64,000 bases of DNA. Origin: Bryobacterales bacterium. GTDB lineage: Bacteria > Acidobacteriota > Terriglobia > Bryobacterales > Bryobacteraceae. Location of the stretch: positions 16,399 through 80,398 of the forward strand of contig JADJWL010000006.1 of the NCBI GenBank assembly GCA_016716385.1, written 5' to 3'. The notes beneath the pieces were generated by a model. That model was given only the letters and a program-made list of their open reading frames with translations, ran no database searches and was not told where the DNA came from. This document shows positions 26,913-63,592 of this stretch, piece by piece. A program made the position numbers and the translations under genes. How positions within the stretch are numbered: position 1 is the first letter of the stretch; each line of letters begins with the position of its first letter.

Positions 26913-28133
26913 CTACCGTACCGCCGTCACCTGCACCTGCTCCAGTTGCTGCTGGATCACCTGCACCGTCGTACGGGCCGGCGGATTCTTCGGGAAGTAC
27001 TCCCTGAAGATGGCGTTCATCGCGTCCATCTGCCCGATGTCTTTCAGGTAGACGTGCGCGTCGACGACGTGTTCGAGATCCATGCCCGCCACGCGCAGGG
27101 TATCGCGGATCGTATTGAGGGAATCCCGCATCTGCGCCTCAAGAGTATCGCCGGATCCGGACTTCCCTGACGTGTACAGAGTGTCGCCGGCCAGGACGCC
27201 GCCGTTCGACGACGTCGGGCTGGGTCCGGCGAAACCAGGCAGCGCGCGTCCCCGGTTTGCGCGGTCGCGCGTGGCGATGAACGTGATCTCGACGCCAATC
27301 GTCCCCGGCAGTTTCGACACGCAGAAGCTCGCCCGGCTGGGCGCGAGACCGAGCGGAAAGTAATCCTTGTAGACCGAGTTCAACTTGCCGTAGGTGGGGC
27401 CGCGGTAGCCGTCCGGGTCGAGGAAGTAGACGTTCGTGAAGACGGCGTCTTTGTGCTCGAGGCCGGCGGCGGCCAGGATCTGGCCGATGTTCTCCATCGT
27501 CTGCTTTGTCTGGCCCTCGATTGCCGGATCGAGCTCGTTCGTCTTGGGTTGACGCCCACCGCTGCCCGACACGTAGAGCGTATCGCCGGCCCAGACGCCC
27601 GGCCGGTAGGGACCCATCGCCACCGGGATGGTCCCTTCGGGCGGGATCACGTGGCTGATCTTGCTCTTGTCGGCGTAGGCGATACAACTCACCTCGATGT
27701 TCGAGCCGCCCGGCAGTCCGGGAAACTCGAGCGTCGTGCGTGCGGGATAGTGGTCAGGACCGAAGTAGCTCCCATAGACTTCGTTCATTTCCTTGTACTG
27801 GCCCATGTCGGCGAGCTGCACGTGGCAGGTCACGACGTTGCCGTAATCCATGCCCGCGGCGCGCAGCACGTGGCCCATGTTGTCCATGGCCATGCGGGTC
27901 TGCGCGGCGATGCCGGAGGGCTGTTCGCCCGTTTGCGGGTCCTTGTCGACCTGCCCCGCGATGTAAAGCGTTTCGCCGGCGAGCACGCCGGGCGTGTAAG
28001 GCTTGCCGGCCTTGAACTCAGCCGGGTAGATGAACTTTCGCGGACTCGAGTAGGGGCTTGGGGCCGTGGTCGGCGATGAGCAGGCGGTCGCTGCCGCGAG
28101 CGCGCACGCGAGGAGAATCAGCCGGGTTTTCAC
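26913..28133 (-). CDS. lipoprotein made of three tandem RidA/YjgF/L-PSP domains
   Basis: Lipobox 'LLACALAAATACS'. Three roughly 125-aa repeats each have 'G(D/E)TLY(I/V/T)(A/S)G' and a C-terminal 'P(A/S)R(T/A)' arginine motif ('YPARTTL', 'APSRASF', 'PPARTTV'). Confidence 0.85.
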   Translation of the reverse strand: MKTRLILLACALAAATACSSPTTAPSPYSSPRKFIYPAEFKAGKPYTPGVLAGETLYIAGQVDKDPQTGEQPSGIAAQTRMAMDNMGHVLRAAGMDYGNVVTCHVQLADMGQYKEMNEVYGSYFGPDHYPARTTLEFPGLPGGSNIEVSCIAYADKSKISHVIPPEGTIPVAMGPYRPGVWAGDTLYVSGSGGRQPKTNELDPAIEGQTKQTMENIGQILAAAGLEHKDAVFTNVYFLDPDGYRGPTYGKLNSVYKDYFPLGLAPSRASFCVSKLPGTIGVEITFIATRDRANRGRALPGFAGPSPTSSNGGVLAGDTLYTSGKSGSGDTLEAQMRDSLNTIRDTLRVAGMDLEHVVDAHVYLKDIGQMDAMNAIFREYFPKNPPARTTVQVIQQQLEQVQVTAVR

Positions 28134-28188: not shown

Positions 28189-29439
28189 ATGAAGCTCAAC
28201 CGGCGAAGACTCCTGCAATCGGCCCTGGGCGCCACGGCATCGGCCGCGGCTGCCGCCGCTCCTGACTGGAAGAAGATCCGCGGGGACTTCCCCTGGATCC
28301 AGCGCAATGTGTGGCTGACGGCGGCGGACTACCACCCGGTCGGCTCGCACACGCTGCGGGCGATGGAGCGGTACCTCGCGTCGCGCGTGCAGGGTCCTGG
28401 CGCGAACCGGTCGCCCTTCACGGGGGACGAGCAGCGCGAAACCCGCGAGATGTTCGGCAAGCTGATCAACGCCAAGCCCAGCGAGATCGCGTTCGTCCAG
28501 AACACGACCGACGCAGAGAACATCGTCGTGGCGGGCATGGACTTCGGCCAAGGCGGCAACGTGGTGATCGACGACTTGCACTACCAGGCGTCGAAGTACC
28601 TGTACCACATGCTCGCCAAGAAGGGCGCCATCGAGTTGCGCGTGGTCCGGCACGAGCCGGGCGAACCGTGGACCATCACGGCGAAGCAGATGGAGCGCGC
28701 CATCGACCGCAAGACAAAGCTCGTCTCGATCGCGCTGGTCTCCAACATCAACGGTTTCCTGCACGACGTGAAAGCGACGAGCGAGATCGCGCATGCGCAT
28801 GGCGCCCTGGTGTACGGCGACATCATCCAGGGCGCGGGATGCATCCCGATTGACGTGAAGGCGATGGGCATCGACGCCGCCGGCTGCGGCAGCTACAAGT
28901 GGCTGATGTCCGACAAGGGCTTCGGTTTTCTCTACGTGCGCGAGGATCTTCACGACACCCGCATCAAGCGGACCCGCTATGGCGTGCGGCAGTACAGCAA
29001 CCCGAACCGCGCGCAGGCCGATTCCCAGTTCACGCTTCTCCCCGGGGCGGTGTGTTACGAAGCAAGTGGGACGTTTTCGAGCTGTGCGGGCATCGGTATG
29101 CATGCGTCGCTGCGGTATATCCACGATCTCGGCATGCCGAACATCCGGGCGCACGCGAAGCGGCTCACGGACCGCCTGCAAAAGGAACTGCCGGGAATGG
29201 GCTACGCCCCGCTGACGCCGCCGGACAATCCCACGCCCATTGTCAGCTTCCTGACGCCGGACTACGAGAAGGCGATCGCGAAGGTGCAAAAGGCGTTCGG
29301 CGAGACGGTGATCGCATTCCGCCGCTGGGAGGTGACCGACGACCGTGGGCGAGTCGACATCGTCAAGGGGATGCGCATTTCGCCGTCGGTGTACAACAAC
29401 GATGACGACGTCGACCGGCTGTTGAACGCGCTGTCGTAA
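28189..29439 (+). CDS. class-V aminotransferase-fold PLP enzyme with twin-arginine signal
   Basis: Tat motif '[22 protein letters not shown]', 'DDLHYQASKY', 'ALVSNINGF', 'VYGDIIQGAG' and putative PLP lysine in 'GSYKWLMSDKGFGFLY'. Confidence 0.8.
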   Translation: MKLNRRRLLQSALGATASAAAAAAPDWKKIRGDFPWIQRNVWLTAADYHPVGSHTLRAMERYLASRVQGPGANRSPFTGDEQRETREMFGKLINAKPSEIAFVQNTTDAENIVVAGMDFGQGGNVVIDDLHYQASKYLYHMLAKKGAIELRVVRHEPGEPWTITAKQMERAIDRKTKLVSIALVSNINGFLHDVKATSEIAHAHGALVYGDIIQGAGCIPIDVKAMGIDAAGCGSYKWLMSDKGFGFLYVREDLHDTRIKRTRYGVRQYSNPNRAQADSQFTLLPGAVCYEASGTFSSCAGIGMHASLRYIHDLGMPNIRAHAKRLTDRLQKELPGMGYAPLTPPDNPTPIVSFLTPDYEKAIAKVQKAFGETVIAFRRWEVTDDRGRVDIVKGMRISPSVYNNDDDVDRLLNALS

Positions 29440-29504
29440 ACCGGGTGGGCGGTAGCCAAGGTCACAGAGCGATCCGCTCCTCAGCGCCCCGTTACACTGG
29501 AGGT

Positions 29505-30692
29505 ATGAGGATCCTCCTGTTCAGTGGCAAGGGCGGCGTCGGCAAGACCAGCCTCGCCGCGGCTACTGGACTCCAGTTGTCCCGTCTCGGCTACGATACC
29601 CTCGTCATGAGCGTGGACCCGGCGCATAGCCTGGCCGACGCCTTCGACCTCGGCGACAGCCTTTTCCACAGTAAGACCGGCGATCCTTACCGGCTTACAG
29701 ATAAACTCGCCATCCACGAAGTCAACATCCAAAAGGAAATCAAGCGCCACTGGCGGGAGATCAGCTCCTACGTGATATCCGTTCTCCGGACCACGGGCAT
29801 CAACGAAGTCGAGGCTGAAGAACTGGCGATTCTCCCCGGCATGGAAGAGCTCTCGGCCATGATGTACGTGAACCAGCACCGCCGCGAAGGACGGTTCCAG
29901 GTGGTCGTACTCGATTGCGCTCCTACGGCCGAGTCGCTGCGCTTCGTCAGCATGCCGACCACGCTCGACTGGTACATGAAGCACATCTTCCCGTTCCACA
30001 GGGGCCTGGCTAAAGCCGTGCGGCCGATCGCCAACCGCGTGTCTCCGGTGGAACTGCCCACGGACAGCTACTTCGCCAACATTGCCGATCTGTTCGCAAA
30101 GCTGGACGGCATCCCGGAACTGCTCGAGGATCCCAACGTGACCAGTGTCCGGCTGGTGACCAATCCGGAGAAAATGGTGCTGCGGGAGACGCAGCGCGCG
30201 TTCGTCTACTTTTCGCTGCACGGACTGACCGTGGACCAGATCCTGGTAAACCGTGTGCTGCCGGAGTCCGTCCAGGACAGCTTCTTCGAAGAATGGCGGG
30301 CAAACCAGGCGCGCATCATCGAGGAGATCGAAACCTACTTCGCGCCGGTCGGGATCAAGCGCGTGCCGCTGTTTACGCGCGAGGTCCTGGGCCAGCAACG
30401 ATTGGAAGAACTGGCCAATACGATCTTCGCCGATGGAGAAGATCCCGCCGCCGTCCTGCGCACCGAAGCTCCCTACCACTTCGTCAAAGCCAACGGCCAC
30501 TACGAAGTGCGGGTGGCGTTACCGTTCGCGGCCAAGGGAGAGGTAGGCTTGTTCAAGAAGGGCGATGAACTGGTGGTGGAGGTTGGCACGCTGCGCCGCC
30601 ATATCGGGCTCCCGACCACGATGAGCAACCTGACCCCGACCCGGGCGCGGCTGGAGAACAAAGTCCTGACAGTGGAGATGAAGGAGGTATGA
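29505..30692 (+). CDS. ArsA/GET3/TRC40-family ATPase with C-terminal Hsp20/CS-like beta-sandwich
   Basis: Deviant Walker A 'SGKGGVGKTS', 'SVDPAHSLADAF' and 'VVLDCAPTAESLRF'. The C-terminal 'YEVRVALPFAAKGEVGLFKKGDELVVEVG..RRHIGLP' is alpha-crystallin-like. Start set at MRILLF with GGAGG upstream. Confidence 0.85.
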   Translation: MRILLFSGKGGVGKTSLAAATGLQLSRLGYDTLVMSVDPAHSLADAFDLGDSLFHSKTGDPYRLTDKLAIHEVNIQKEIKRHWREISSYVISVLRTTGINEVEAEELAILPGMEELSAMMYVNQHRREGRFQVVVLDCAPTAESLRFVSMPTTLDWYMKHIFPFHRGLAKAVRPIANRVSPVELPTDSYFANIADLFAKLDGIPELLEDPNVTSVRLVTNPEKMVLRETQRAFVYFSLHGLTVDQILVNRVLPESVQDSFFEEWRANQARIIEEIETYFAPVGIKRVPLFTREVLGQQRLEELANTIFADGEDPAAVLRTEAPYHFVKANGHYEVRVALPFAAKGEVGLFKKGDELVVEVGTLRRHIGLPTTMSNLTPTRARLENKVLTVEMKEV

Positions 30693-32653: not shown

Positions 32654-34266
32654 GACTCTTTTCCGTTCTTCTTCTGGCGGCCACACTGGCGGCGCAGGTT
32701 CCGTACTCCCGGCTGCGCGATGCCGCGAAAGAACCGGGTAGCTGGCTGACCTACAACGGCACGTACTTCAGCCAGCACTACAGCGCCCTCGACCAGGTCA
32801 ACCGTGCGAACGTCTCGAAGCTGGGGCTCCAGTGGGTCTTTCAGGCGCGCTCGCTCGAGAAGTTCGAAACGACGCCGCTGGTGGCCGACGGGGTCATGTA
32901 TCTTACCGAACCGCCGAATAACGTGATCGCGGTGGACCCTGCCACGGGCCGCCCGTTCTGGATGTACGAGCATACGCTGCCCGAAGTCACCTATCCCTGT
33001 TGCGGCAAGGTGAATCGCGGCGTCGCGATCCTCGGCAATTCGATTTACCACGCGACGCACGACGCCAAGGTGGTCGCTCTTGACGCCCGGACCGGACGCA
33101 AACAGTGGGAGACCACGGTGGCCAACTACCAGGAAGGCTACGCGCTCACGCACGCGCCGCTGGCGGTCAAGGACAAGATCATCATTGGACCGGCGGGCGG
33201 CGAACTGGGCATCCGCGGCTTTGTGCTCGCTCTCGACGCCAGGACGGGCAAGGAGGTCTGGCGCTTCAAGGTGATTCCCGAACCCGGTGAGAAAGGAAAT
33301 GATTCCTGGGGCGGCGACTCCTGGAAGCACGGTGGTGGGTCGATCTGGCTCACCGGGTCCTACGATCCCGAGTTGAATCTCACCTATTGGGGCACCGGCA
33401 ACCCGGGGCCGGACTGGAATCCCGCCGTCCGGCCCGGCGATAACCTCTACACCGATTGCGTCGTCGCGCTGGACGCCGATACCGGCGAATTGAAATGGCA
33501 TTTCCAGTTCACGCCCCATGACGAATGGGATTGGGACGCCGTGCAGGTCCCGGTTCTGGCTGACCTGGAGTGGGCCGGCAAGCCACGCAAGGTGATGCTC
33601 TGGGGGAACCGCAACGGATTCTTCTATGTGCTGGACCGCGCGACCGGTGAGTTCCTGCTGGGCAAGCCGTTCGTGAAGCAGACGTGGGCCAGAGGTCTGG
33701 ATGCCCAGGGCAGGCCGGAGAAGATTCCGGGCATGGGTCCGAGCCGCCAGGGAACGAAGGTGTGGCCTGGAGTGCAGGGCGGCACCAACTGGTACGCGCC
33801 ATCGTTCTCCCCGTTGACGAAGCTCTTCTATCTGACCGCCTGGGAGGATTACCACGGCACGTACTTCACCTGGGACCAGGAGTACGAGCCCGGCAAGTGG
33901 TACGTCGGCGGCGGAGTCAAGGCGCCGGTCCCCCCGACGCGGCGCGAGCCGATCGTGACCCGCGGCACCGAGGATGGGTACGCGACGATTCGCGCGCTCG
34001 ATCCCAGGACTGGCGAACGGGTATGGGAATACCCGATGGCCGATATGAGCGAGAGCGGGCTGCTCACGACGGCAGGCGGCGTTCTGTTTTCGGGAAGCCG
34101 CGAGGGCTGGTTCTTCGCGCTCGACGCCGCTTCCGGCAAGCTGTTGTGGCGGATCTATCTCGGCGGGCAAGTGATTGCTTCGCCAATCACCTACCTGGTG
34201 AACGGGAAGCAGCAGATCTCGATAGCCGCCGGATCGTCGCTGTTCACCTTTGCCGTGCTGGAGTGA
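32650..34266 (+). CDS. PQQ-dependent dehydrogenase, methanol/ethanol (quinoprotein ADH) family
   Basis: Signal peptide, vicinal 'YPCCGKVNRG', 'GPAGGELGIRG', 'YWGTGNPGPDWN', 'TPHDEWDWDAV', and W-repeat propeller motifs throughout. Confidence 0.9.
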   Translation: MRLFSVLLLAATLAAQVPYSRLRDAAKEPGSWLTYNGTYFSQHYSALDQVNRANVSKLGLQWVFQARSLEKFETTPLVADGVMYLTEPPNNVIAVDPATGRPFWMYEHTLPEVTYPCCGKVNRGVAILGNSIYHATHDAKVVALDARTGRKQWETTVANYQEGYALTHAPLAVKDKIIIGPAGGELGIRGFVLALDARTGKEVWRFKVIPEPGEKGNDSWGGDSWKHGGGSIWLTGSYDPELNLTYWGTGNPGPDWNPAVRPGDNLYTDCVVALDADTGELKWHFQFTPHDEWDWDAVQVPVLADLEWAGKPRKVMLWGNRNGFFYVLDRATGEFLLGKPFVKQTWARGLDAQGRPEKIPGMGPSRQGTKVWPGVQGGTNWYAPSFSPLTKLFYLTAWEDYHGTYFTWDQEYEPGKWYVGGGVKAPVPPTRREPIVTRGTEDGYATIRALDPRTGERVWEYPMADMSESGLLTTAGGVLFSGSREGWFFALDAASGKLLWRIYLGGQVIASPITYLVNGKQQISIAAGSSLFTFAVLE

Positions 34267-35434
34267 CGTCTTCAAGCTTGCCGAACATGATGCGCTCCTT
34301 GCGACTGGGCGACGAATCGCCCTGTGTCACCGAAACCCAGATCGCGCCGCCGTACTCACGGAACGTCGGATACTGGAATGATTTCGGCGTCGCGAACCGG
34401 TACTTGCGTTCCCAGGTCTTGCCGTCGCGCGAGACGTCGAGGTTGAACACGGACCGGCGCACGCCATCGATGCGCGTGTTCTCCTGCCAGCCGAGGTAGT
34501 AGACGCCGCCGAACCGGTCGAAGGTGGGCTTCGAATTGTCCCCGTTGGGGATGAACTCCACGTGACGGCCCGGCGTCCAACTTCTGCCGTCGCGGCTAGT
34601 GGTCACCGTGTAATTGCCGTCGCCTCCGTCCTGGCGGCAGATCGCCATCCAGGTGCCGTCAGGCAAGCGGTTCACGGAGGACTCGCTGAGGTCCAGTTCC
34701 TGCGGTTCGTTGTAGTGTCCGATGATCTCGAAGGTATCGAGGGCGTCGTTCACCACCGTGAGCGCATTCTGCTTGCCGGGATAGTTGTTGATGGCGAGGT
34801 AGGTGCGTCCGTCGAACGTCTTAAAGGAATCGAACAGGTAAAGCCCGTAGTCCTTCGGCTCTTTCCTGAAGCCGCGGGTGTCGGCGTGGAAGTGTTGCGG
34901 CTGCATGTCCACGATGCCGGCCGCCGTCTTCAGCTTCACCCGGTGGATGTCCGCTTCGAACGCCATCGAGGGCAGGTCGAAATCGCGATACCAGGTCTGG
35001 GACTGCCGTACGCCCGGCTGTTCGCTCGCGAAGTAGCAGCGCAGCGTGCGTGCGTCCTTGCGGATGATGCGCGGGACGAAGCAGGCGCCCACCGGCAGCG
35101 TGACGTTGGAGAACGACTGTTCGGATCTCGCAATCGGGATGATGTTCTCAACCGTGAGAGTCTTGAGATTCACGATCGACATCGCCGCATAGATCTCGGG
35201 CCGGTTCGCACTCTCGCCGTGATCGACTTCGTTCACCTCCGCCACGATGTAGGCGCGGCCTTCCACCAGAACCATCTCGGAGTCGTGGGCGCCTTTCACT
35301 TCGGGTGCGGTGACGGAGATCAGCCGTTCCATGACCCGGCTTCCCGCGCGGACGGGGTCCCATCCCGGGGGCACAAGGCTCTGGGCGGACACGCAGGCTG
35401 CAGTCAGGATCAGGAGGGAGGCGGTCCGGGTCAC
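34244..35434 (-). CDS. exported BNR/Asp-box (sialidase-like) repeat protein
   Basis: Signal peptide 'LLILTAACVSAQS' and Asp boxes 'TTSRDGRSWT' and 'VSRDGKTWE'. Its 3' end overlaps the PQQ gene by 23 nt (convergent). Confidence 0.75.
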   Translation of the reverse strand: MTRTASLLILTAACVSAQSLVPPGWDPVRAGSRVMERLISVTAPEVKGAHDSEMVLVEGRAYIVAEVNEVDHGESANRPEIYAAMSIVNLKTLTVENIIPIARSEQSFSNVTLPVGACFVPRIIRKDARTLRCYFASEQPGVRQSQTWYRDFDLPSMAFEADIHRVKLKTAAGIVDMQPQHFHADTRGFRKEPKDYGLYLFDSFKTFDGRTYLAINNYPGKQNALTVVNDALDTFEIIGHYNEPQELDLSESSVNRLPDGTWMAICRQDGGDGNYTVTTSRDGRSWTPGRHVEFIPNGDNSKPTFDRFGGVYYLGWQENTRIDGVRRSVFNLDVSRDGKTWERKYRFATPKSFQYPTFREYGGAIWVSVTQGDSSPSRKERIMFGKLEDVTPARQR

Positions 35435-35456: not shown

Positions 35457-35531
<75 letters not shown>

Positions 35532-35586
35532 GGCGGCCTCGTCTCTTGCAACATAGCGCGCGCCCTCGCACCGTGTCAACGACGGT

Positions 35587-35683
35587 TGGAGACCGGGCTG
35601 GGAATCGAACCCAGCAGCGCATGCCTGGCACGCGCTCAACGGGTTTGCAGCCCGCGGGAAGCGCCAGCTTCCTGTACCGGCCC
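35587..35683 (-). tRNA. non-canonical ~96-nt tRNA-like gene with GCA (Cys) anticodon, 6-bp D stem/4-nt D loop and ~21-nt variable arm (tRNASec/allo-tRNA-like)
   Basis: Minus strand: GGCCGGU-ACA-GGAAGC-UGGC-GCUUCC-C-GCGGG-CUGCAAA-CCCGU-UG-AGCGCGUG-CCAGG-CAUGCGCU-G-CUGGG-UUCGAUU-CCCAG-CCCGGUC-U-CCA. The T, anticodon, D and variable arms pair cleanly. The acceptor has 6 bp plus a U-C mismatch, or an alternative 8/4 register with a bulge. Confidence 0.6.
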
Positions 35684-35724: not shown

Positions 35725-36066
35725 TCATGCATCGCGGCCGTGTTCGCTCACTTCGCCATGCAACTCGGCGACATGCTTCCGCAGCAACGCCAGGGTCCGG
35801 CGGCCGTTTGCGGTCAGCCGGTACTCTTTGCGGCCATTCTCCCCGTCTGAGCTGCGCAGCCAGCCGTGAGCTTCCATGCGGCGCAGGAGTGGATACAGCG
35901 TTCCGGGGCTGATGGCGTAACCGTGACGCCGCAACTCCTCGGCAATCCACTGGCCGTATATCGGACCCTCTGCCGCGTGGTACAGAATATGGACCTTCCA
36001 GAAGCCAATGAGGATCTCGCGAGTTACCGGATCGCTTGTGCGGATTTGGCGCTTCGCGCTTGACAT
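35725..36066 (-). CDS. PadR-family transcriptional regulator
   Basis: Winged-helix 'YGQWIAEELRRHGYAISPGTLYPLLRRMEAHGWL' and 'RKEYRLTANG'. Confidence 0.85.
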   Translation of the reverse strand: MSSAKRQIRTSDPVTREILIGFWKVHILYHAAEGPIYGQWIAEELRRHGYAISPGTLYPLLRRMEAHGWLRSSDGENGRKEYRLTANGRRTLALLRKHVAELHGEVSEHGRDA

Positions 36067-36084
36067 ACGGCTCTCGCCCTCATA

Positions 36085-36114
36085 CTATCGGATTTCGTAG
36101 ACGGTTGTCGATAG
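36085..36114. promoter_or_regulatory. candidate PadR operator (inverted repeat CTATCG-N18-CGATAG) in the padR/tolC divergent region
   Basis: This is the only clear dyad in the 70-bp divergent intergenic region. Its function is inferred from position only. Confidence 0.3.
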
Positions 36115-36136: not shown

Positions 36137-37513
36137 ATGACGATACTCAAAGGCCGCGCGCGGGCGATTCTGCTTTTCTTGCCGATTGTGCCCGCCTACC
36201 CGCAACTGCCGATGGGGCTCGCTGACGCCGTGGAGCGCGCCCGCGAGCACTACCCGTCCGTCGCCGTCTCACGCTCTCAGGTGGAGGCGGCCGCGGCGGG
36301 GATCCGGCTGGCGCGGACCAGCTACCGGCCGAGACTCGACTCGATTGCGCAGGTGAACCGGGCGACGCGGAACAACCTGTACGGCATGCTGCTGATGCAG
36401 CCGGTGATCTCGCCGATCAGCGGGCCGCCGGTCGAGGAGACCAGCACTGCGAGTGTGTTCGGCAGCGCCGTGGGCTTGCTCTTTGACTGGGAGCCTTTCG
36501 ATTTCGGCCTCCGCCGCGCCCAGGTCGAGCTGGCCGAGAGTGCGCGCCGGCGCACGGATGCCGCGGTGGTTCGCAGCCAGTTCGAAGCTGGCGCGGCGGC
36601 GGCCGATGCGTATCTGACCGTGATGGCGGCGCGCGAGACCGTCAAGGCGGCCCGTGCCGGCGTGGAGCGCAGCCATGTCTGGCTCAAAGTGGTCCAGGCG
36701 CTCGTGCGGGCGGAACTGCGTCCCGGTGCGGATGAGGCGCTGGCTCAGGCTGAACTGGCAGCCGCCGAAGCCCAGGTGATTCAGGGCGAACTGGCGATTG
36801 CCGACGCCACCGCGCTCCTGGCCGGGCTGACCGGTAGCACACCGGCTACGCTGCAGGTGGACGAGGGGCGCATGCTGGCAATGCCGGAGGAACAGACTGC
36901 GCCGGGAGGAGAACTGGCGGCGAATCCTCTTGCGCGCGAACAGAGCGCCGCCGTCGACGAAGCGCGGTCCAGACTCAGGACGCTGGACAAGCAGTGGGTC
37001 CCGCGGTTCTCCGTGCAAGGGACGAGCTATGCCCGCGGCACCGGCGCTCGTCCCGATTTCACCGTCCTGGGCGGTGCGAACGGTCTCGCCCCAACTTTCT
37101 ACAACTGGGGCCTCGGCTTCTCCGTCCAATTTCCCCTGCTGGAAAACGAACCGGTCCGCGCGCGCCAGGCGGAACAATCGGCCAACATCCGCACCGAGGA
37201 GAATCGCTACAAACTTATCCTCACGGAACTCGAAACGCGCCGCAACAGGGCCCTGGCCGCGGTCGACGCCGCGCGCCGGATGGCCCGCCTCACGCCAACA
37301 CAACTGGCCGCCGCACGCACCGCGGAAACCCAGGCTCAGGCCCGCTACAAAGCAGGTCTGGCGTCTGTGATGGAAGTTGCGGACACGCAGCGCCTGCTCG
37401 CGCAGTCGGAGATCGATGACGGTCTGGCGCGTCTTAACGTCTGGCGGGCTGTGCTTGCATTGCGTACGGCGGAGGGAGATCTGGAGCCCTTCCTGCGGAT
37501 GGCGGGGAACTAG
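36137..37513 (+). CDS. TolC-family outer-membrane efflux protein
   Basis: 458-aa protein with a signal-like N-terminus and two repeated coiled-coil/beta halves. 'SYRPRLDS', 'PNW..G' style motifs and 'YKAGLASVMEVADTQR' are typical of OEP family proteins. Confidence 0.85.
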   Translation: MTILKGRARAILLFLPIVPAYPQLPMGLADAVERAREHYPSVAVSRSQVEAAAAGIRLARTSYRPRLDSIAQVNRATRNNLYGMLLMQPVISPISGPPVEETSTASVFGSAVGLLFDWEPFDFGLRRAQVELAESARRRTDAAVVRSQFEAGAAAADAYLTVMAARETVKAARAGVERSHVWLKVVQALVRAELRPGADEALAQAELAAAEAQVIQGELAIADATALLAGLTGSTPATLQVDEGRMLAMPEEQTAPGGELAANPLAREQSAAVDEARSRLRTLDKQWVPRFSVQGTSYARGTGARPDFTVLGGANGLAPTFYNWGLGFSVQFPLLENEPVRARQAEQSANIRTEENRYKLILTELETRRNRALAAVDAARRMARLTPTQLAAARTAETQAQARYKAGLASVMEVADTQRLLAQSEIDDGLARLNVWRAVLALRTAEGDLEPFLRMAGN

Positions 37514-37516
37514 ACC

Positions 37517-40500
37517 ATGTGGCTGATCCACATCGCCATGCGCCGGCCGGTGACTGTGCTGATGGTGATTGCCGGCGTAGCGCTCTGCTCCATCCTCGCG
37601 ATCCAGCGCATGAAGGCCGACATCTTCCCGCAACTGGGCACGCCGGTCATCTACGTCGCGCAGCCCTACGGCGGCATGGATCCGGCGCAGATGGAAGGGT
37701 ACCTCGTCAACTATTACGAGTATCACTTCCTTTACATCAGCGGCATTGATTACGTCGAGTCGCGCTCCATCCAGGGCGCTTCGATCATGAAGCTGCACTT
37801 CCACGAGGGCACGGACATGGCACAGGCCATGGCCGAGACGGTGGCGCAGGTGAACCGGTCGCGCGCATTCATGCCGCCAGGCACGGTGCCGCCCTTCGTA
37901 ACCCGCTTCGACGCCGGCAGCGTCCCCGTTGGCTACCTAGTGTTCTCGAGTGAGACGCGCAATGTCGATGAGATCTCCGACCTGGCGCTGTTCCGCGTAC
38001 GTCCGATGTTCTCGCGCCTTCCGGGCGTCTCGGCGCCGCCTCCGTTCGGCGGCACTGCGCGCAGTCTTGTCGTGCGGGTGGATCCGGACAAGCTGCGCGC
38101 GTACGGCCTTTCTCCAGACGAAGTCGTTCAGGCGATCGCTACTACCAACACTTTGTCGCCCTCCGGCAATCTGCGAATGGGCGACCTCAACCGGATCGCG
38201 CCGCTCAACGCGACCGTGATCGAAGCCGCGGAGTTGAACGACATCCCGATCCGCCGCGGCGTAGGCCCCACGGTCTTCCTGCGCGATATCGGCTACGCCG
38301 AGGACGCGGCGGACATCCTCACGAGCTATGCGCTGGTGAATGGACGCCGCGCCGTCTACATCGCCGCAACCAAGCGCGCCGACGCCTCCACTCTCGACGT
38401 CGTCCGCAACATCCGCCAGGCGCTGCCGTCGTTCCGCGCGGCGATTCCCGAGGATATCGCAGTCTCGTTCGAACTCGACCAATCGTTTTACGTCACCAAC
38501 GCTCTGCGGGCGCTGCTCCAGGAGGGTCTCATGAGCGCCGCGCTGACCGGACTCATGATTCTGTTGATGCTGCGCAGCCTGCGGACCGCGCTGGTGGTGG
38601 TCACGACGATTCCTGTCGCGCTGCTTTCGGCGGTTGTTGCGCTCTGGGCCTTCGGACAATCTTTGAACCTGATGACACTGGGCGGCCTGACGCTGGCGAT
38701 CGGCATTCTCGTGGATGAATCGGTGGTTGCGGTGGAGAACATCCACACGCATCTCGGGCGCGACAAGTCGACCGCACGCGCGGTGCTCGAAGCCAGCCGC
38801 GAAGTGGTGGTTCCACGTCTGCTGGCTATGTTGTCGGTGGTGGCGGTATTCGCGCCGTCGTTCTTCATGGCGGGCGTGGCCCGAGCGATGTTCGTCCCGC
38901 TCGGTCTCGCGGTTGCCTTCGCGATGATCGCGTCCTACTTTCTGGCGAGCACGCTAGTGCCGGTTCTTGAAACGTGGCTGAACCGGGGTTACCGGAAGCG
39001 CGAGGAGGCCGCCGGGTGGTTCGACCGGTTCGGCGGGTTCTCCGCGCACTTGATGGCGTATCGGTGGGTCATCCTCGGCGTCTACCTCGTCTCCGCTTCC
39101 GCGATCGTCTTCTTTGTGGGCCGCGGCTTGGGCACGGACATCTTTCCGCCAATGGACACGGGGCTCGTCCAGATGCGCCTGCGCGCGCCGACGGGGACGC
39201 GCGTCGAGCGCACCGAGCGCATTGTGCAGCAGGTTCTGGCAGAGATTCACGCGCAAGCTGGAGAGTCGAATGTTGCCAGCTCGCTTGCGTTTATCGGCGT
39301 GCAGCCTTCTGCATATCCCGTGAACCTGATCTTCCTGTGGACCAGCGGCCCCCACGAGGCCGTGATGCAGGTTTCGTTGCGGCCCGGGGTCTCCACCGCG
39401 GAGCTCCAGGAGCGGCTGCGCCGCCGGATTCCCGAGATCTCTCCAGGGACCAGCGTCACCTTCGAAGCAGCCGATCTGGTTAGCCAGGTAATGAGCTTCG
39501 GCGCGCCGACGCCGGTCGAGGTCGCGGTGACCAGTCCGAATCTTGCAGTGAATCGCCAGTACGCCGATTCGATTGCCGCGGCATTGGGCAAACTGGATAC
39601 CTTGCGTGACGTCGCCCTGGGCGAGCTGCTCGACTACCCAGCTGTGAACATCCGCGTCGACCGCGAGCGCGCCGCTCAGCTTGGCGTCACCATGACCGAT
39701 ATCGGGCGGGCGCTTGCGCCGGCGACGTGGTCGAGCCGCTTCACGACACCGGTGTACTGGGCCGACCCGAGGTCCGGCATTGCCTACCAGGTGCAGGTCG
39801 AGATCCCGCAGTCGCGGCTTTCCTCCGTGGAAGACCTGCAGCGGATTCCCGTGCGGACAGGCACTCTGTTGAGCGACCTGGCGGACTTGAGTTTGGGGAA
39901 TACGACGGGCGAGTATCATCGCTACAACATGCAGCGCATGATCACTGTGAATGCCAACATCCGGGGGACGGATCTCGAAACCGCCTCCCGGCAGATCGAC
40001 GCGGTGCTCCAGGGGCTTCCGGAGCCGCCTCGCGGAGTCAGTGTCACGGTGCGGGGACAACTCGCGCCGCTGGCAGTCATGGTCGAGAATCTGACGCTTG
40101 GTTTATCGCTGTCGATCGTTGCGGTGTTTCTGCTTCTGGCTGCGTATTTCCAGTCGATCCGTGTCGCGTTCACGGTTCTGCTGGCGATCCCCTCGGTGCT
40201 GGCGGGGGTCAGCCTGGCGCTGCTGGTCACCGGGACAACGCTCAATCTGCAATCGTTCATGGGGGCGATGATGGCGGTCGGCATCTCGGTTGCGAACACG
40301 ATCCTGCTGTGCACATTCGCCGACCAGGCGCGGCGCGGCGGGCTCCCCGCCGCCGAAGCCGCGGCCGAAGCCGCGCGCACCCGCATCCGGCCCGTTCTGA
40401 TGACCAGCATCGTGATGATCTCCGGCATGATGCCTCTGGCCTTAGGTTCGGCGCAGACGGCGCCGCTCGGCATCGCCGTGATCGGGGGGCTGGCGGCAGC

Positions 40501-40621
40501 GACCTTCACGACGCTGTTCGTCATTCCCGCGGCGTTCGCCATCGTCGAAGGCCGCAGCAGCACGGCATCGCCGTCGATCGATCCGGATGATCCAGGGAGT
40601 CCGCACTATGACCGGGCGTAA
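37517..40621 (+). CDS. RND efflux transporter permease (AcrB/CzcA superfamily)
   Basis: 1034-aa protein with 12 TM segments and two large periplasmic loops, plus '[22 protein letters not shown]' and '[17 protein letters not shown]'. Confidence 0.95.
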
Positions 40622-41711
40622 GAATACCGTTCTCAGCTTCTGCATTCTCGGCCTCGCCTCCAGCGCATTCGCCCAGGAGCCGGTACGGGCGAAACTGGTC
40701 GAGGTGATCTCGAGGCCGCTCGAAGGAACGTCCACACTGCCCGGCGAGCTTGCGTCCTTCCGCACGATCGGCGTCCATGCGCGCGTCTCGGGGTTTGTCG
40801 AGTCGGTTCGGGTCGACCGGGGCTCGAAAGTCCGCAAAGGCGACGTCCTGGCCACGGTCACGGCGCCGGAAATGGAGGCGCGGGTCGCGGAATTGCGGGC
40901 GCGCGTCGTCGAGGTGGAGTCGCGGCGGGCGGAGGCGCAAGCCCGGCTTGTCGCGGCGGAGAGTACGTTGAACCGCTTGCGCGAGGCGGCCAGGACGCCG
41001 GGAGTTGTGGCGGGCAACGACATCGTCCTGGCGGAGGCGGCAGTGGAAGCGGAGCGGGGCAGGATCGCCTCGATTGACAAGAGCGCCGAGGCGGCGAGGG
41101 CGTCGGTCGCTGCCTTTGAGGAAATGATGCGATACCTCGATGTCCGCGCGGAGTTCGACGGCGTCATCTCTGAGCGGCTCGCGCATGAAGGGAGCCTCGC
41201 CGGACCCGAGAACAAGGAAGGACAGCCGCTGTTCCAGCTTGACCAGGTGGATCGCCTGCGCCTGGTGGTGGCGGTGCCGGAGTCTTTGGTGGGAGGCATC
41301 CGGCGCGGTGCGCGCGTCACCTTCCAGGTGGCCGCCCACCGCGGAGAGGCCTTCACGGGCGTGGTCGCCCGGCCGGCGCTCACGGTAGATGCAAAGACGC
41401 GGACGATGCCGGTCGAGCTCGACGTGCAAAACCCCGGCGGCCGTCTGGCTCCGGGAATGTACGCCGAGGTTGCCTGGCCGCAAGGCCGCGGACGGCCGAG
41501 CCTGCTGGTGCCGCCGCGCGCGATCAAAGCAACGACCGAGCGCGTGTTCGTGGTCCGGGTGGCGGAGGGCGCCGCCGAATGGGTCGACGTGCGGCGCGGG
41601 GCGCAGGTGGGCGATCTTGTCGAGGTGTTCGGCGATCTCCGCGCCGGCGACCGGATCTTCGAGCGCGCCACCGACGAGGTCCGGCCGGGGGCCAGGGTGA
41701 CGGCGGAATGA
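40608..41711 (+). CDS. RND efflux periplasmic adaptor (membrane-fusion protein, HlyD family)
   Basis: Signal '[16 protein letters not shown]', lipoyl-like '[14 protein letters not shown]', a coiled coil, and beta-barrel '[17 protein letters not shown]'. Start at ATG 40608 has GGGAG 8 nt upstream. Confidence 0.88.
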
Positions 41712-63166: not shown

Positions 63167-63592
63167 ATGAATATTTCGGTTAAGGGCGAGTACGCTCTCC
63201 AGGCGGTGTTCGATCTGGCCGCGCAGCCGGCGGGAACTCCCGTCAAGATCGCCGACATCGCGACCCGTCAGAACATCCCCCAGAAGTTTCTGGAATTGAT
63301 TCTGGCGAGCCTCAAGCAGGGCGGCTTTGTCGAATCCAGACGCGGCGCCGAGGGCGGTTACCTGCTGGCCCGTCCGCCCGCAGCCATTACGGTGGGGGAA
63401 GTGCTACGCTTTTTCGAGGGGGCGCAGAACGGACGGACGCGGGGGCGCCGCAAGACGGATTCTCCTTTCGCAGAGTTATGGCGCCAGGTGGATGACGCGG
63501 TCTCTTCCGTCGTGGACCACGCCACGTTCGCCGATCTGCATCGCCAGTGGACCGAAAAACAGCAGAAGTTCGTGCCGAATTGGGAGATTTAA
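63167..63592 (+). CDS. Rrf2-family transcriptional regulator (CymR/IscR-like)
   Basis: '[15 protein letters not shown]', wHTH '[43 protein letters not shown]'. Confidence 0.88.

Follow-up and report, generated by a model that had tools for sequence, protein, structure and literature searches.

The window analysed here, a 64-kb stretch of DNA from a metagenome-assembled genome (MAG) of a member of the Bryobacterales (Acidobacteriota; Terriglobia), carries a tRNA-shaped gene of 96 nt including CCA (93 nt without it), in which the arms of a bacterial selenocysteine tRNA (tRNA-Sec) are joined to the identity elements of a cysteine tRNA. The gene lies on the minus strand at 35587–35682 (all positions are window coordinates), and a canonical tRNA-Cys(GCA) gene follows downstream after a spacer of 55 nt. 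Judged by comparison with its relatives, the long gene appears to be functional and vertically inherited, and its RNA would represent an acidobacterial branch of the selC*/tRNAReC kind, which is published but rare. New here are the phylum and the geometry of the acceptor branch, neither of which was found described in the accessible literature. The gene pair and the parts of the long gene are located as follows.

35587–35682, minus strand: long tRNA-shaped gene, with G1 at 35682, U73 at 35590 and the encoded CCA at 35589–35587
35457–35531, minus strand: canonical tRNA-Cys(GCA), 75 nt (ARAGORN; Rfam RF00005, 69.2 bits)
35676–35682, minus strand: acceptor 5' strand GGCCGGU (1–7), partner of 35591–35597
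35590–35597, minus strand: acceptor 3' strand CCCGGUC (66–72) with the discriminator U73 (35590), from the sequence
35673–35675, minus strand: 3-nt connector ACA from acceptor to D arm, its length kept and its sequence variable among the relatives of alignment A1 (see below)
35657–35672, minus strand: D arm of the tRNA-Sec type, 6-bp stem GGAAGC/GCUUCC and 4-nt loop UGGC (sequence, covariation)
35639–35655, minus strand: anticodon arm, 5-bp stem GCGGG/CCCGU and loop CUGCAAA, anticodon GCA at 35648–35646
35616–35636, minus strand: variable arm, 8-bp stem AGCGCGUG/CAUGCGCU and loop CCAGG (sequence, fold, covariation)
35615, minus strand: G48, about 90% conserved among relatives
35598–35614, minus strand: T arm, 5-bp stem CUGGG/CCCAG and loop UUCGAUU, 100% of cells paired

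The 5' half of the RNA reads GGCCGGU-ACA-[GGAAGC-UGGC-GCUUCC]-C-[GCGGG-CUGCAAA-CCCGU]-UG, and 3' of this UG it continues as [AGCGCGUG-CCAGG-CAUGCGCU]-G-[CUGGG-UUCGAUU-CCCAG]-CCCGGUC-U-CCA. Within the acceptor stem of the window copy, G2·U71 is a wobble and U7/C66 a mismatch, and the RNA has no G3:U70 pair. The would-be sixth pair of the anticodon stem is C/U and is marked as non-canonical in the Rfam (cmscan) alignment. The variable region comprises 21–23 nt, and the folding program lengthens the variable arm to 9 bp with a 3-nt loop.

ARAGORN found two tRNA genes in total in the 64 kb and called each of them tRNA-Cys(gca), and at the curated Rfam thresholds the same two genes were the sole RNAs matched. 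RF01852 (tRNA-Sec) matched the long gene at 58.9 bits, its gathering score being 47, with E = 2e-9 for the window. A pattern consisting of the GCA loop, a long gap and the T loop had one match in the window and none in 100 shuffles, and the unconstrained fold of the long RNA was a cloverleaf of −51.5 kcal/mol (z = −3.4 versus shuffles). The resemblance of the long gene to tRNA-Sec is beyond chance. A preliminary description of the locus had transcribed the minus-strand sequence correctly, letter for letter, and the features that it listed are all present: the textbook 75-nt tRNA-Cys(GCA) 55 nt away, the 6-bp D stem with its 4-nt loop, the long variable arm, GCA, U73, CCA and, in the 7/5 register (7-bp acceptor and 5-bp T stem), the U7/C66 mismatch. 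The gene-finder and folding checks proposed there yielded the tRNA-Cys call, the RF01852 score above the gathering threshold and the cloverleaf given above, which bears out its reading of the RNA as a union of tRNA-Sec-type D and variable arms with GCA and U73, the elements of Cys identity; the contrary outcome that it had named, a pseudogene score or no covariance-model match, is set aside by the same RF01852 score.

Relatives were collected by scanning a genome collection with the pattern GGCTGCAAACC-N(20-42)-GGTTCGAWTCC, which gave at least 120 matches. Among the matches listed, a window-like group starting with GGCCGG or GACCGG came nearly entirely from Acidobacteriota MAGs (Terriglobia, Bryobacterales, Solibacteraceae, Vicinamibacteria and Acidobacteriaceae). 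The other groups listed were a delta-proteobacterial type (8-bp acceptor; 4-bp T stem, bulged A), hosted by Desulfacinum, Desulfomonile and Syntrophobacteraceae, as well as Bacillota types (Desulfotomaculum relatives, Sulfobacillus) and Actinomycetota types. A metagenome scan aimed at the window-like group added at least 99 contigs from soil, peat, rhizosphere and sediment. Pooling of both scans gave at least 115 copies, at least 95 of them distinct, and alignment A1 contains the 92 that were left after dropping three outliers. The search patterns fixed the GCA loop, and variants with a UCA anticodon would escape them. With at least 95 distinct sequences of the acidobacterial form, the kind is common in soil bacteria and extends beyond anaerobes; this abundance of the clade in soil Acidobacteriota is not apparent from the accessible literature.

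Several observations made during this collection concern sequences at or beyond the edge of the clade. One copy (L281, region 528–583) has the 3' two-thirds of an acidobacterial-type gene attached to an unrelated 5' part and is probably a truncated pseudogene, and another (L297) differs from the clade in acceptor sequence and architecture. The loose pattern CTGCAAA-N(22-45)-GGTTCGAWTCC matched at least 120 viral contigs, probably by chance or through tRNA clusters. Four Sulfobacillus loci (L135, L191, L202 and L207) carry an 8/5 Sec-like tRNA-Cys(GCA) with U73, and since these hosts are aerobic and acidophilic, Sec-like tRNA-Cys is not limited to strict anaerobes even outside the Acidobacteriota.

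The covariation within alignment A1 carries the case for a functional gene. The cloverleaf was paired in 96.2% of cells, against 36–53% when the 3' partners were slid by 1–3 columns, and both-sided changes were found at 12 pairs in 153 cells; the observed values were reached in none of 500 shuffles. Five of the six D-stem pairs showed both-sided changes with 98.9% of cells paired, compensatory changes occurred in all five outer pairs of the variable arm that were tested, pair 2:71 of the acceptor was G·U, A-U or G-C in a third of the copies each, pair 6:67 showed a C-G swap, and pair 51:63 of the T stem had changed from G-C to C-G in 8 copies and was never mismatched. The C:G pair closing the D stem was kept in 89 of 92 copies, and the D-loop GG was invariant. 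Among the 95 distinct copies, acceptor pairs 1–6 : 67–72 were intact in 94, CCA was encoded in 33, and U73 was present in 94, the exception being a Bacillota-type copy (L216), later excluded, whose automatic read is maybe one base off. U73 and the T loop, together with the D-loop GG, are invariant or nearly so, and the examination of related loci proposed in the preliminary description revealed compensatory changes in four helices. The synteny around the long gene is kept within lineages and differs between lineages, which fits vertical inheritance.

The acceptor/T branch of these RNAs has its own geometry. Pair 7:66 is weak, being U·C in about half of the copies, including that of the window, and paired in only 33 of 92. 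Where position 66 is C or U it can pair with G48 instead, as in 51 of the 92 copies, and the T stem then has 6 bp; this 48:66 pairing belongs to the minimum-energy fold of the window RNA. By explicit enumeration, the coaxial acceptor/T helix of the acidobacterial form comprises 12 bp in every copy, either way, 7/5 or 6/6. G48 takes part in the core triple C15:G20a:G48 in tRNA-Sec of A. aeolicus (PMC3711452), and by analogy the G48 of the long RNA may form a Sec-type core triple with C15:G20a instead of pairing with position 66. The alternative register of the preliminary description, an 8/4 shape with a bulge that starts from G(-1), was abandoned: it needs a G(-1)-U73 pair, the base at −1 is essentially random across the 95 distinct copies (C in 39, T in 26, G in 20 and A in 10), which makes the upstream-shifted register a coincidence of the window copy, and the enumeration gives 7/5 or 6/6. 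Another 8/4 register, via position 8 and G65, was rejected as well, position 8 being variable and C49-G65 invariant. In general, an 8/4 drawing of the acidobacterial copies would take two terminal mismatches.

The same enumeration gave a 13-bp branch (8/5) for the Sulfobacillus and Ca. Solincola copies and a 12-bp, 8/4-compatible branch for those of the Coriobacteriia type. A copy from a Desulfovibrionales MAG (L168:1201-1291) combines the GGCCGG lineage with one extra nucleotide in the 3' strand, resulting in an 8/5 branch of 13 bp with a U/U mismatch, and it resembles what the ancestor of the acidobacterial 7/5 form would have been. The window RNA has 10 nt 5' of the D stem, and E. coli tRNA-Sec likewise has 10 nt before its D stem, so an 8/5 ancestor minus one nucleotide of the 3' strand is the simplest history. 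Such a loss would have produced the 7-bp acceptor and the 3-nt connector, which is 2 nt long in canonical tRNA and tRNA-Sec. Two further long tRNA-Cys(GCA) genes from Coriobacteriia/Actinomycetota MAGs (L159:5607-5702 and L204:835-930) have only U-A pairs at the junction, which allows their 12-bp branch to be split as 7/5, 8/4 or even 9/3; such genes may form a link between selC*-like and allo-tRNA-like geometries.

The preliminary description had pointed to metagenome surveys by Mukai, Söll and co-workers. The paper concerned (Mukai et al. 2017, NAR, PMC5389517) separates two Sec-like classes among the false positives of tRNA-Sec searches. The allo-tRNAs have an 8/4 or 9/3 branch and 35 different anticodons, the majority of which are mismatched; in most cases their identity is Ser or Ala, and they were reported from Clostridia, Proteobacteria and Acidobacteria (PMC5389517). 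The selC* tRNA-Cys class has U73 and a GCA or UCA anticodon; its hosts are anaerobic Firmicutes, Thermodesulfobacteria, Nitrospirae and delta-proteobacteria, whose genomes all have complete Sec machinery and in some cases adjoining selB* and cysS* (PMC5389517). The statement that Acidobacteria were included holds for the allo-tRNAs (8/4 or 9/3) and fails for selC*. As related in PMC11415595 and PMC13582414, selC* was renamed tRNAReC by Vargas-Rodriguez et al. (2018, RNA Biol). A 2020 review still gave only the four original selC* phyla, and a 2026 survey, whose operational definition of tRNAReC asks for U73, an anticodon of GCA or UCA and no fewer than 80 nt, added Armatimonadota, Desulfobacterota and JAPLJL01 as hosts (PMC13582414). 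Acidobacteriota were not found as a selC* phylum in the accessible literature, a scope beyond which lie the 2018 survey and the supplement of the 2017 paper.

The window RNA resembles selC*/tRNAReC in U73 and the GCA anticodon, in reaching 80 nt or more and having a long variable arm (8–9 bp), in matching the covariance model for tRNA-Sec and having a Sec-type D arm, in being an extra gene beside a canonical tRNA-Cys and in its sequence, which is similar to L141 (Thermosulfurimonas) and to the Desulfovibrionales copy L168. At the same time, the selC*/tRNAReC acceptor has 8 bp (8/4 with a bulged A51a, or 8/5), whereas that of the window RNA has 6–7 bp and no bulged A51a; the selC* anticodon stem has 6 bp rather than 5; some selC* genes adjoin selB* or cysS*, unlike the acidobacterial loci; and the host phyla listed for selC* lack the Acidobacteriota, while the copies of the window clade come mostly from oxic soils. 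Because its acceptor and anticodon stems are not lengthened, the long RNA was filed as a relative of selC*/tRNAReC and not as a typical member, and the differences in branch, stem, connector, neighbours and hosts make SelB dependence of the acidobacterial form doubtful. With the allo-tRNAs it shares the phylum, a D arm made of a 6-bp stem and a tetraloop, a long variable arm and the 12-bp acceptor/T stack, but the split is 7/5 or 6/6 instead of 8/4 or 9/3, and in place of diverse anticodons on Ser or Ala acceptors the clade has GCA together with U73, a pairing that points to a matching Cys identity (the patterns having fixed GCA). Bacterial tRNA-Sec (RF01852) is similar in the D arm, the long variable arm, G48 and the C:G pair closing the D stem, and differs in having UCA, G73 and 13 bp (8/5) against GCA, U73 and 12 bp. 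The tRNA-Sec(GCA) of A. salmonicida (Mukai et al. 2016, as cited in PMC11415595) is, like the window RNA, Sec-shaped with a Cys anticodon; as cited there, it has Sec identity (SerRS, SelA and SelB) and inserts Sec at UGC, whereas the window RNA has U73 and a shorter acceptor branch. Canonical class I tRNA-Cys, finally, has a variable loop of 4–5 nt, a D stem of 3–4 bp and a D loop of 7–11 nt, as against 21–23 nt, 6 bp and 4 nt here.

By analogy, cysteine is the best-supported identity of the long RNA: U73 and the GCA anticodon are the main CysRS determinants (PMC5389517), and selC* relatives with Sec-like arms are cysteinylated by CysRS (PMC5389517; PMC11415595). In the mechanism that we prefer, tentatively and with a little less than even confidence in CysRS charging combined with EF-Tu delivery to UGY codons, the ordinary CysRS, most probably the charging enzyme, would load the long tRNA with cysteine, and EF-Tu would deliver the charged RNA to ordinary UGU/UGC codons, where it would serve as a minor second tRNA-Cys; expression would probably be achieved via read-through from the upstream gene, here padR. 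EF-Tu is preferred as the carrier because the branch has 12 bp, the length that this factor prefers: according to a 2024 review, a branch of 13 bp is suitable for SelA and SelB, whereas EF-Tu has a preference for 12 bp, and the title of Baron and Böck (1991) already has acceptor-stem length decide between SelB and EF-Tu binding. Additionally, 12-bp allo-tRNAs of the acidobacterium Silvibacterium undergo processing and charging in E. coli, where EF-Tu makes use of them (PMC5389517), and, together with the lack of an adjoining selB paralogue in 114 loci, this slightly favours EF-Tu.

Three elements upstream and downstream of the long gene bear on its transcription.

35725–36066, minus strand: PadR-family regulator gene, padR (Pfam PF03551, E = 3e-18)
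36082–36111, minus strand: promoter-like site upstream of padR (consensus scan)
35550–35579, minus strand: sigma-70-like promoter TTGACA, 18 nt, TATGTT, in the 55-nt spacer (motif match, consensus scan)

The padR stop codon is located 42 nt upstream of the long tRNA gene on the same strand. The promoter consensus scan gave 4 sites, all of them motif matches, versus 0.2 expected in shuffles, and no promoter-like site was found by it between the padR stop and the long tRNA. It may therefore be that padR and the long gene are co-transcribed, and the two tRNA-Cys genes may be transcribed separately, since the canonical one has its own promoter-like site. The relatives present a similar arrangement, and their long tRNAs too may share a transcript with the upstream gene: the nearest upstream open reading frame (ORF) was co-directional in 67 of 95 loci, with a median stop-to-tRNA gap of 30 nt according to crude ORF calls and a gap of at most 70 nt in 48 of those 67. 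The upstream gene varies by lineage (response regulator, Ser/Thr kinase, CysK, acetyltransferase or protein of unknown function), and co-directional close neighbours are common in bacteria anyway.

The published tRNAReC/selC* mechanism offers another reading, which we consider possible but rather doubtful for the acidobacterial form: CysRS would charge the RNA, SelB would bring it to UGA codons with a selenocysteine insertion sequence (SECIS), the GCA anticodon would mispair with UGA and Cys would replace Sec, so that formate dehydrogenase and other selenoproteins would be safeguarded under selenium scarcity. A number of points raised in its favour, along with two of a more general kind, weigh against delivery by EF-Tu to UGY. 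The sole experimentally studied members, as far as the later accounts relate, use SelB and read UGA, not UGY; in particular, the GCA-bearing tRNAReC of D. nigrificans is charged by CysRS, is not used by EF-Tu and is delivered by SelB to UGA with SECIS, Cys being inserted (via PMC11415595 and PMC13582414). Tests of the kind that first revealed selC* (PMC5389517), namely a score above the tRNA-Sec gathering threshold, and the operational features of tRNAReC (at least 80 nt, GCA, U73; PMC13582414) both describe the window RNA, and its GGCCGG acceptor and layout are common to L141 and L168, from lineages with published selC*. Solibacter usitatus, which belongs to the same order, possesses SelA and SelB together with two FdhA that contain Sec. 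Moreover, tRNA-Sec and selC* with a 12-bp (8/4) branch are known and presumed to use SelB or SelB* (PMC5389517), so branch length alone does not exclude SelB, and selection continues to act on the Sec-type D and variable arms, which suggests that a partner, of the Sec pathway or another, recognises them; their retention is easier to explain if Sec-pathway proteins handle the RNA. The two general points are that the conservation of GCA throughout the clade is no independent observation, because the patterns demanded the GCA loop, and that the proposed co-transcription leans on crude ORF calls and consensus promoter scans. Against SelB and UGA stand the acceptor of 6–7 bp instead of 8 and the total branch of 12 bp, given that an 8-bp acceptor was important for suppression in the delta-proteobacterial member (PMC5389517). 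The search for sel and cysS genes, which the preliminary description had proposed for the full genome, was carried out at the scope of the 64-kb window, where selA, selB, selD, cysS, serS and tRNA-Sec were not found; beside the long tRNA of related loci, selB, cysS and tRNA-Sec were found in none of 114 (610 kb in total), which leaves these loci without a selB*/cysS* neighbour. The window has no Sec gene and no selenoprotein candidate, and its glutathione peroxidase (GPx) is the Cys form (NVASKCGYT). The clade is, in addition, widespread in oxic soils, while the published selC* hosts are anaerobes (PMC5389517).

A Ser or dual Ser/Cys identity, with SerRS charging the RNA through its long variable arm and Ser being placed at Cys codons in a regulated form of mistranslation, or with SelA converting Ser to Sec and Sec entering at UGC/UGU as with the A. 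salmonicida tRNA-Sec(GCA), has a small chance of being correct. The RNA has the main determinant of SerRS, a long variable arm, and a D arm of the tRNA-Sec type (6-bp stem, 4-nt loop); both G73 and U73 are held to be Ser-compatible in allo-tRNAs and acidobacterial allo-tRNAs put Ser at Leu codons in E. coli (PMC5389517), and a tRNA-Sec with a GCA anticodon recodes UGC (PMC11415595). However, U73 is found in 94 of 95 copies, and in the 2017 suppression tests of alanine-type allo-tRNA variants Ser was inserted by the G73 variant only (PMC5389517), so the emphasis that the preliminary description placed on ambiguous Cys/Ser charging was probably overstated; besides, SelA needs a 13-bp branch (2024 review), where the long RNA has 12 bp, and the gene is broadly conserved despite the cost that a proteome-wide swap of Cys for Ser would bring. 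Improbable too, if slightly less so, is a mainly non-translational role as a tRNA-shaped element at mRNA 3' ends, whose excision from a polycistronic transcript by RNase P and RNase Z would define the upstream mRNA at its 3' end and the downstream mRNA at its 5' end, or whose charging state would report the cysteine supply, for example in a cysK-rrf2 operon. The close co-directional upstream ORFs described above agree with it, as do the start of rrf2 about 3–25 nt past the tRNA in the cys-operon clade described below and the want of a promoter-like site between padR and the long gene in the window, when the canonical tRNA-Cys has one of its own; regulatory non-coding roles were also raised by Mukai et al. 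(PMC5389517). A pure processing signal, though, would have no need of U73, of an intact anticodon loop with A37 and A38, of an invariant D-loop GG or of a perfect T loop, 33 of the 95 copies encode CCA in the manner of ordinary tRNAs, tight co-directional neighbours are not peculiar to these loci, and mRNA processing and translational use can coexist. A decaying duplicate or functionless pseudogene, for which one could cite the U7/C66 mismatch at the base of the acceptor and the loss of the 5' half in the related copy L281, is very unlikely because of the covariation data: 95 distinct copies from several acidobacterial classes show compensatory changes in four helices, there is little or no variation in the T loop, the D-loop GG and U73, and the fold is stable.

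Delivery by EF-Tu, the preferred reading, can be extended into a joint scenario that is unlikely to hold in all of its parts. A Sec-derived tRNA-Cys would have lost one nucleotide of its 3' strand (8/5 to 7/5), passed from SelB to EF-Tu, spread in soil Acidobacteriota as a second, class-II-shaped tRNA-Cys and tied its expression to its neighbours (the stress regulator gene padR in the window; the cysK/CymR-like operon in Solibacteraceae), the Sec arms serving SerRS, a SelA-like or a modification enzyme in conditional Cys/Ser decoding or cysteine sensing. If EF-Tu delivers the long tRNA, it would present a natural switch of elongation factor by a single-nucleotide deletion; if SelB is still used, the rule of an 8-bp acceptor stem for SelB would be relaxed. 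The clade is a natural intermediate, with a Sec-type body and an acceptor branch of EF-Tu length, and its 12-bp variant makes the choice between SelB and EF-Tu directly testable. Programmed recoding by a tRNA of non-standard structure has few natural examples; the tRNA-Sec-like Cys tRNAs are among them and also serve as a chassis for genetic-code engineering. Note that covariance models label such genes tRNA-Sec, so that a MAG may wrongly seem to use selenocysteine.

Two candidates connected with the above were rejected. The sole in-frame TGA junction in the window, considered as a selenoprotein gene, proved to be two adjacent genes, and a link to SepRS/SepCysS was dropped, as a bacterial survey mentions neither Acidobacteria nor a long-arm tRNA-Cys.

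In about six Bryobacterales/Solibacteraceae lineages, the long gene stands in a row of cys genes, in the order cystathionine-gamma-synthase/lyase family enzyme, CysK, long tRNA-Cys and Rrf2 regulator (loci L224:3396-6130, L230, L271, L273, L275, L302 (2935-5686), L312 and L339), with gaps of 23–35 nt before the tRNA and about 3–25 nt to the downstream rrf2. The CysK of this row matched TIGR01139 with 450 bits against a cut-off of 351 and is 85–97% identical between lineages, and the closest named family of the Rrf2 regulator is CymR. The orthologues in the window, a CymR-like rrf2 at 63167–63592 and cysK, which begins near 63.6 kb and reaches the end of the window (64000), are in the reversed order compared to the cys row, contain no tRNA and lie 28 kb from the tRNA pair. 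As one context of at least six, the cys row weakly supports a connection with cysteine. A conserved protein partner beside the long gene was sought and rejected, the neighbours being lineage-specific and mostly members of abundant paralogous families (kinases, response regulators and TonB-type receptors). The adjacency to a canonical tRNA-Cys was seen in the window alone and in 0 of 114 related loci. At four loci (L214, L237, L241 and L295), a tRNA-Val(CAC) gene is located 55–70 nt downstream on the same strand; two or three of the four, including L214 and L237, belong to Vicinamibacteria MAGs, L241 and L295 are on metagenome contigs, and the arrangement resembles an ordinary tRNA operon.

The gene content of the window is that of an ordinary chromosome (ArgRS, aconitase, PNPase, MtaB, UvrC, methylmalonyl-CoA mutase and others), and padR is divergent from a TolC/RND/adaptor efflux operon at 36137–41711. 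Immediately downstream of the tRNA pair lies the following gene.

34244–35434, minus strand: BNR/sialidase-family gene, 396 aa, identical (100%) to MBK9167829.1 (exo-alpha-sialidase)

The closest homologues of its product, at 64–74% identity, include proteins of Planctomycetota, Verrucomicrobiota and Chloroflexota; this scatter over phyla suggests horizontal transfer of the sialidase-family gene next to the tRNA genes, and the homologues, scattered over Planctomycetota and Verrucomicrobiota, were of no use for locating orthologous loci. Elsewhere in the window, a 406-aa protein with three tandem Rid/L-PSP (enamine/imine deaminase) domains is encoded at 26913–28133 on the minus strand, beside a class-V aminotransferase resembling cysteine desulfurase (28189–29439), which in turn is next to an ArsA-like ATPase with an HSP20-like domain (29445–30692).

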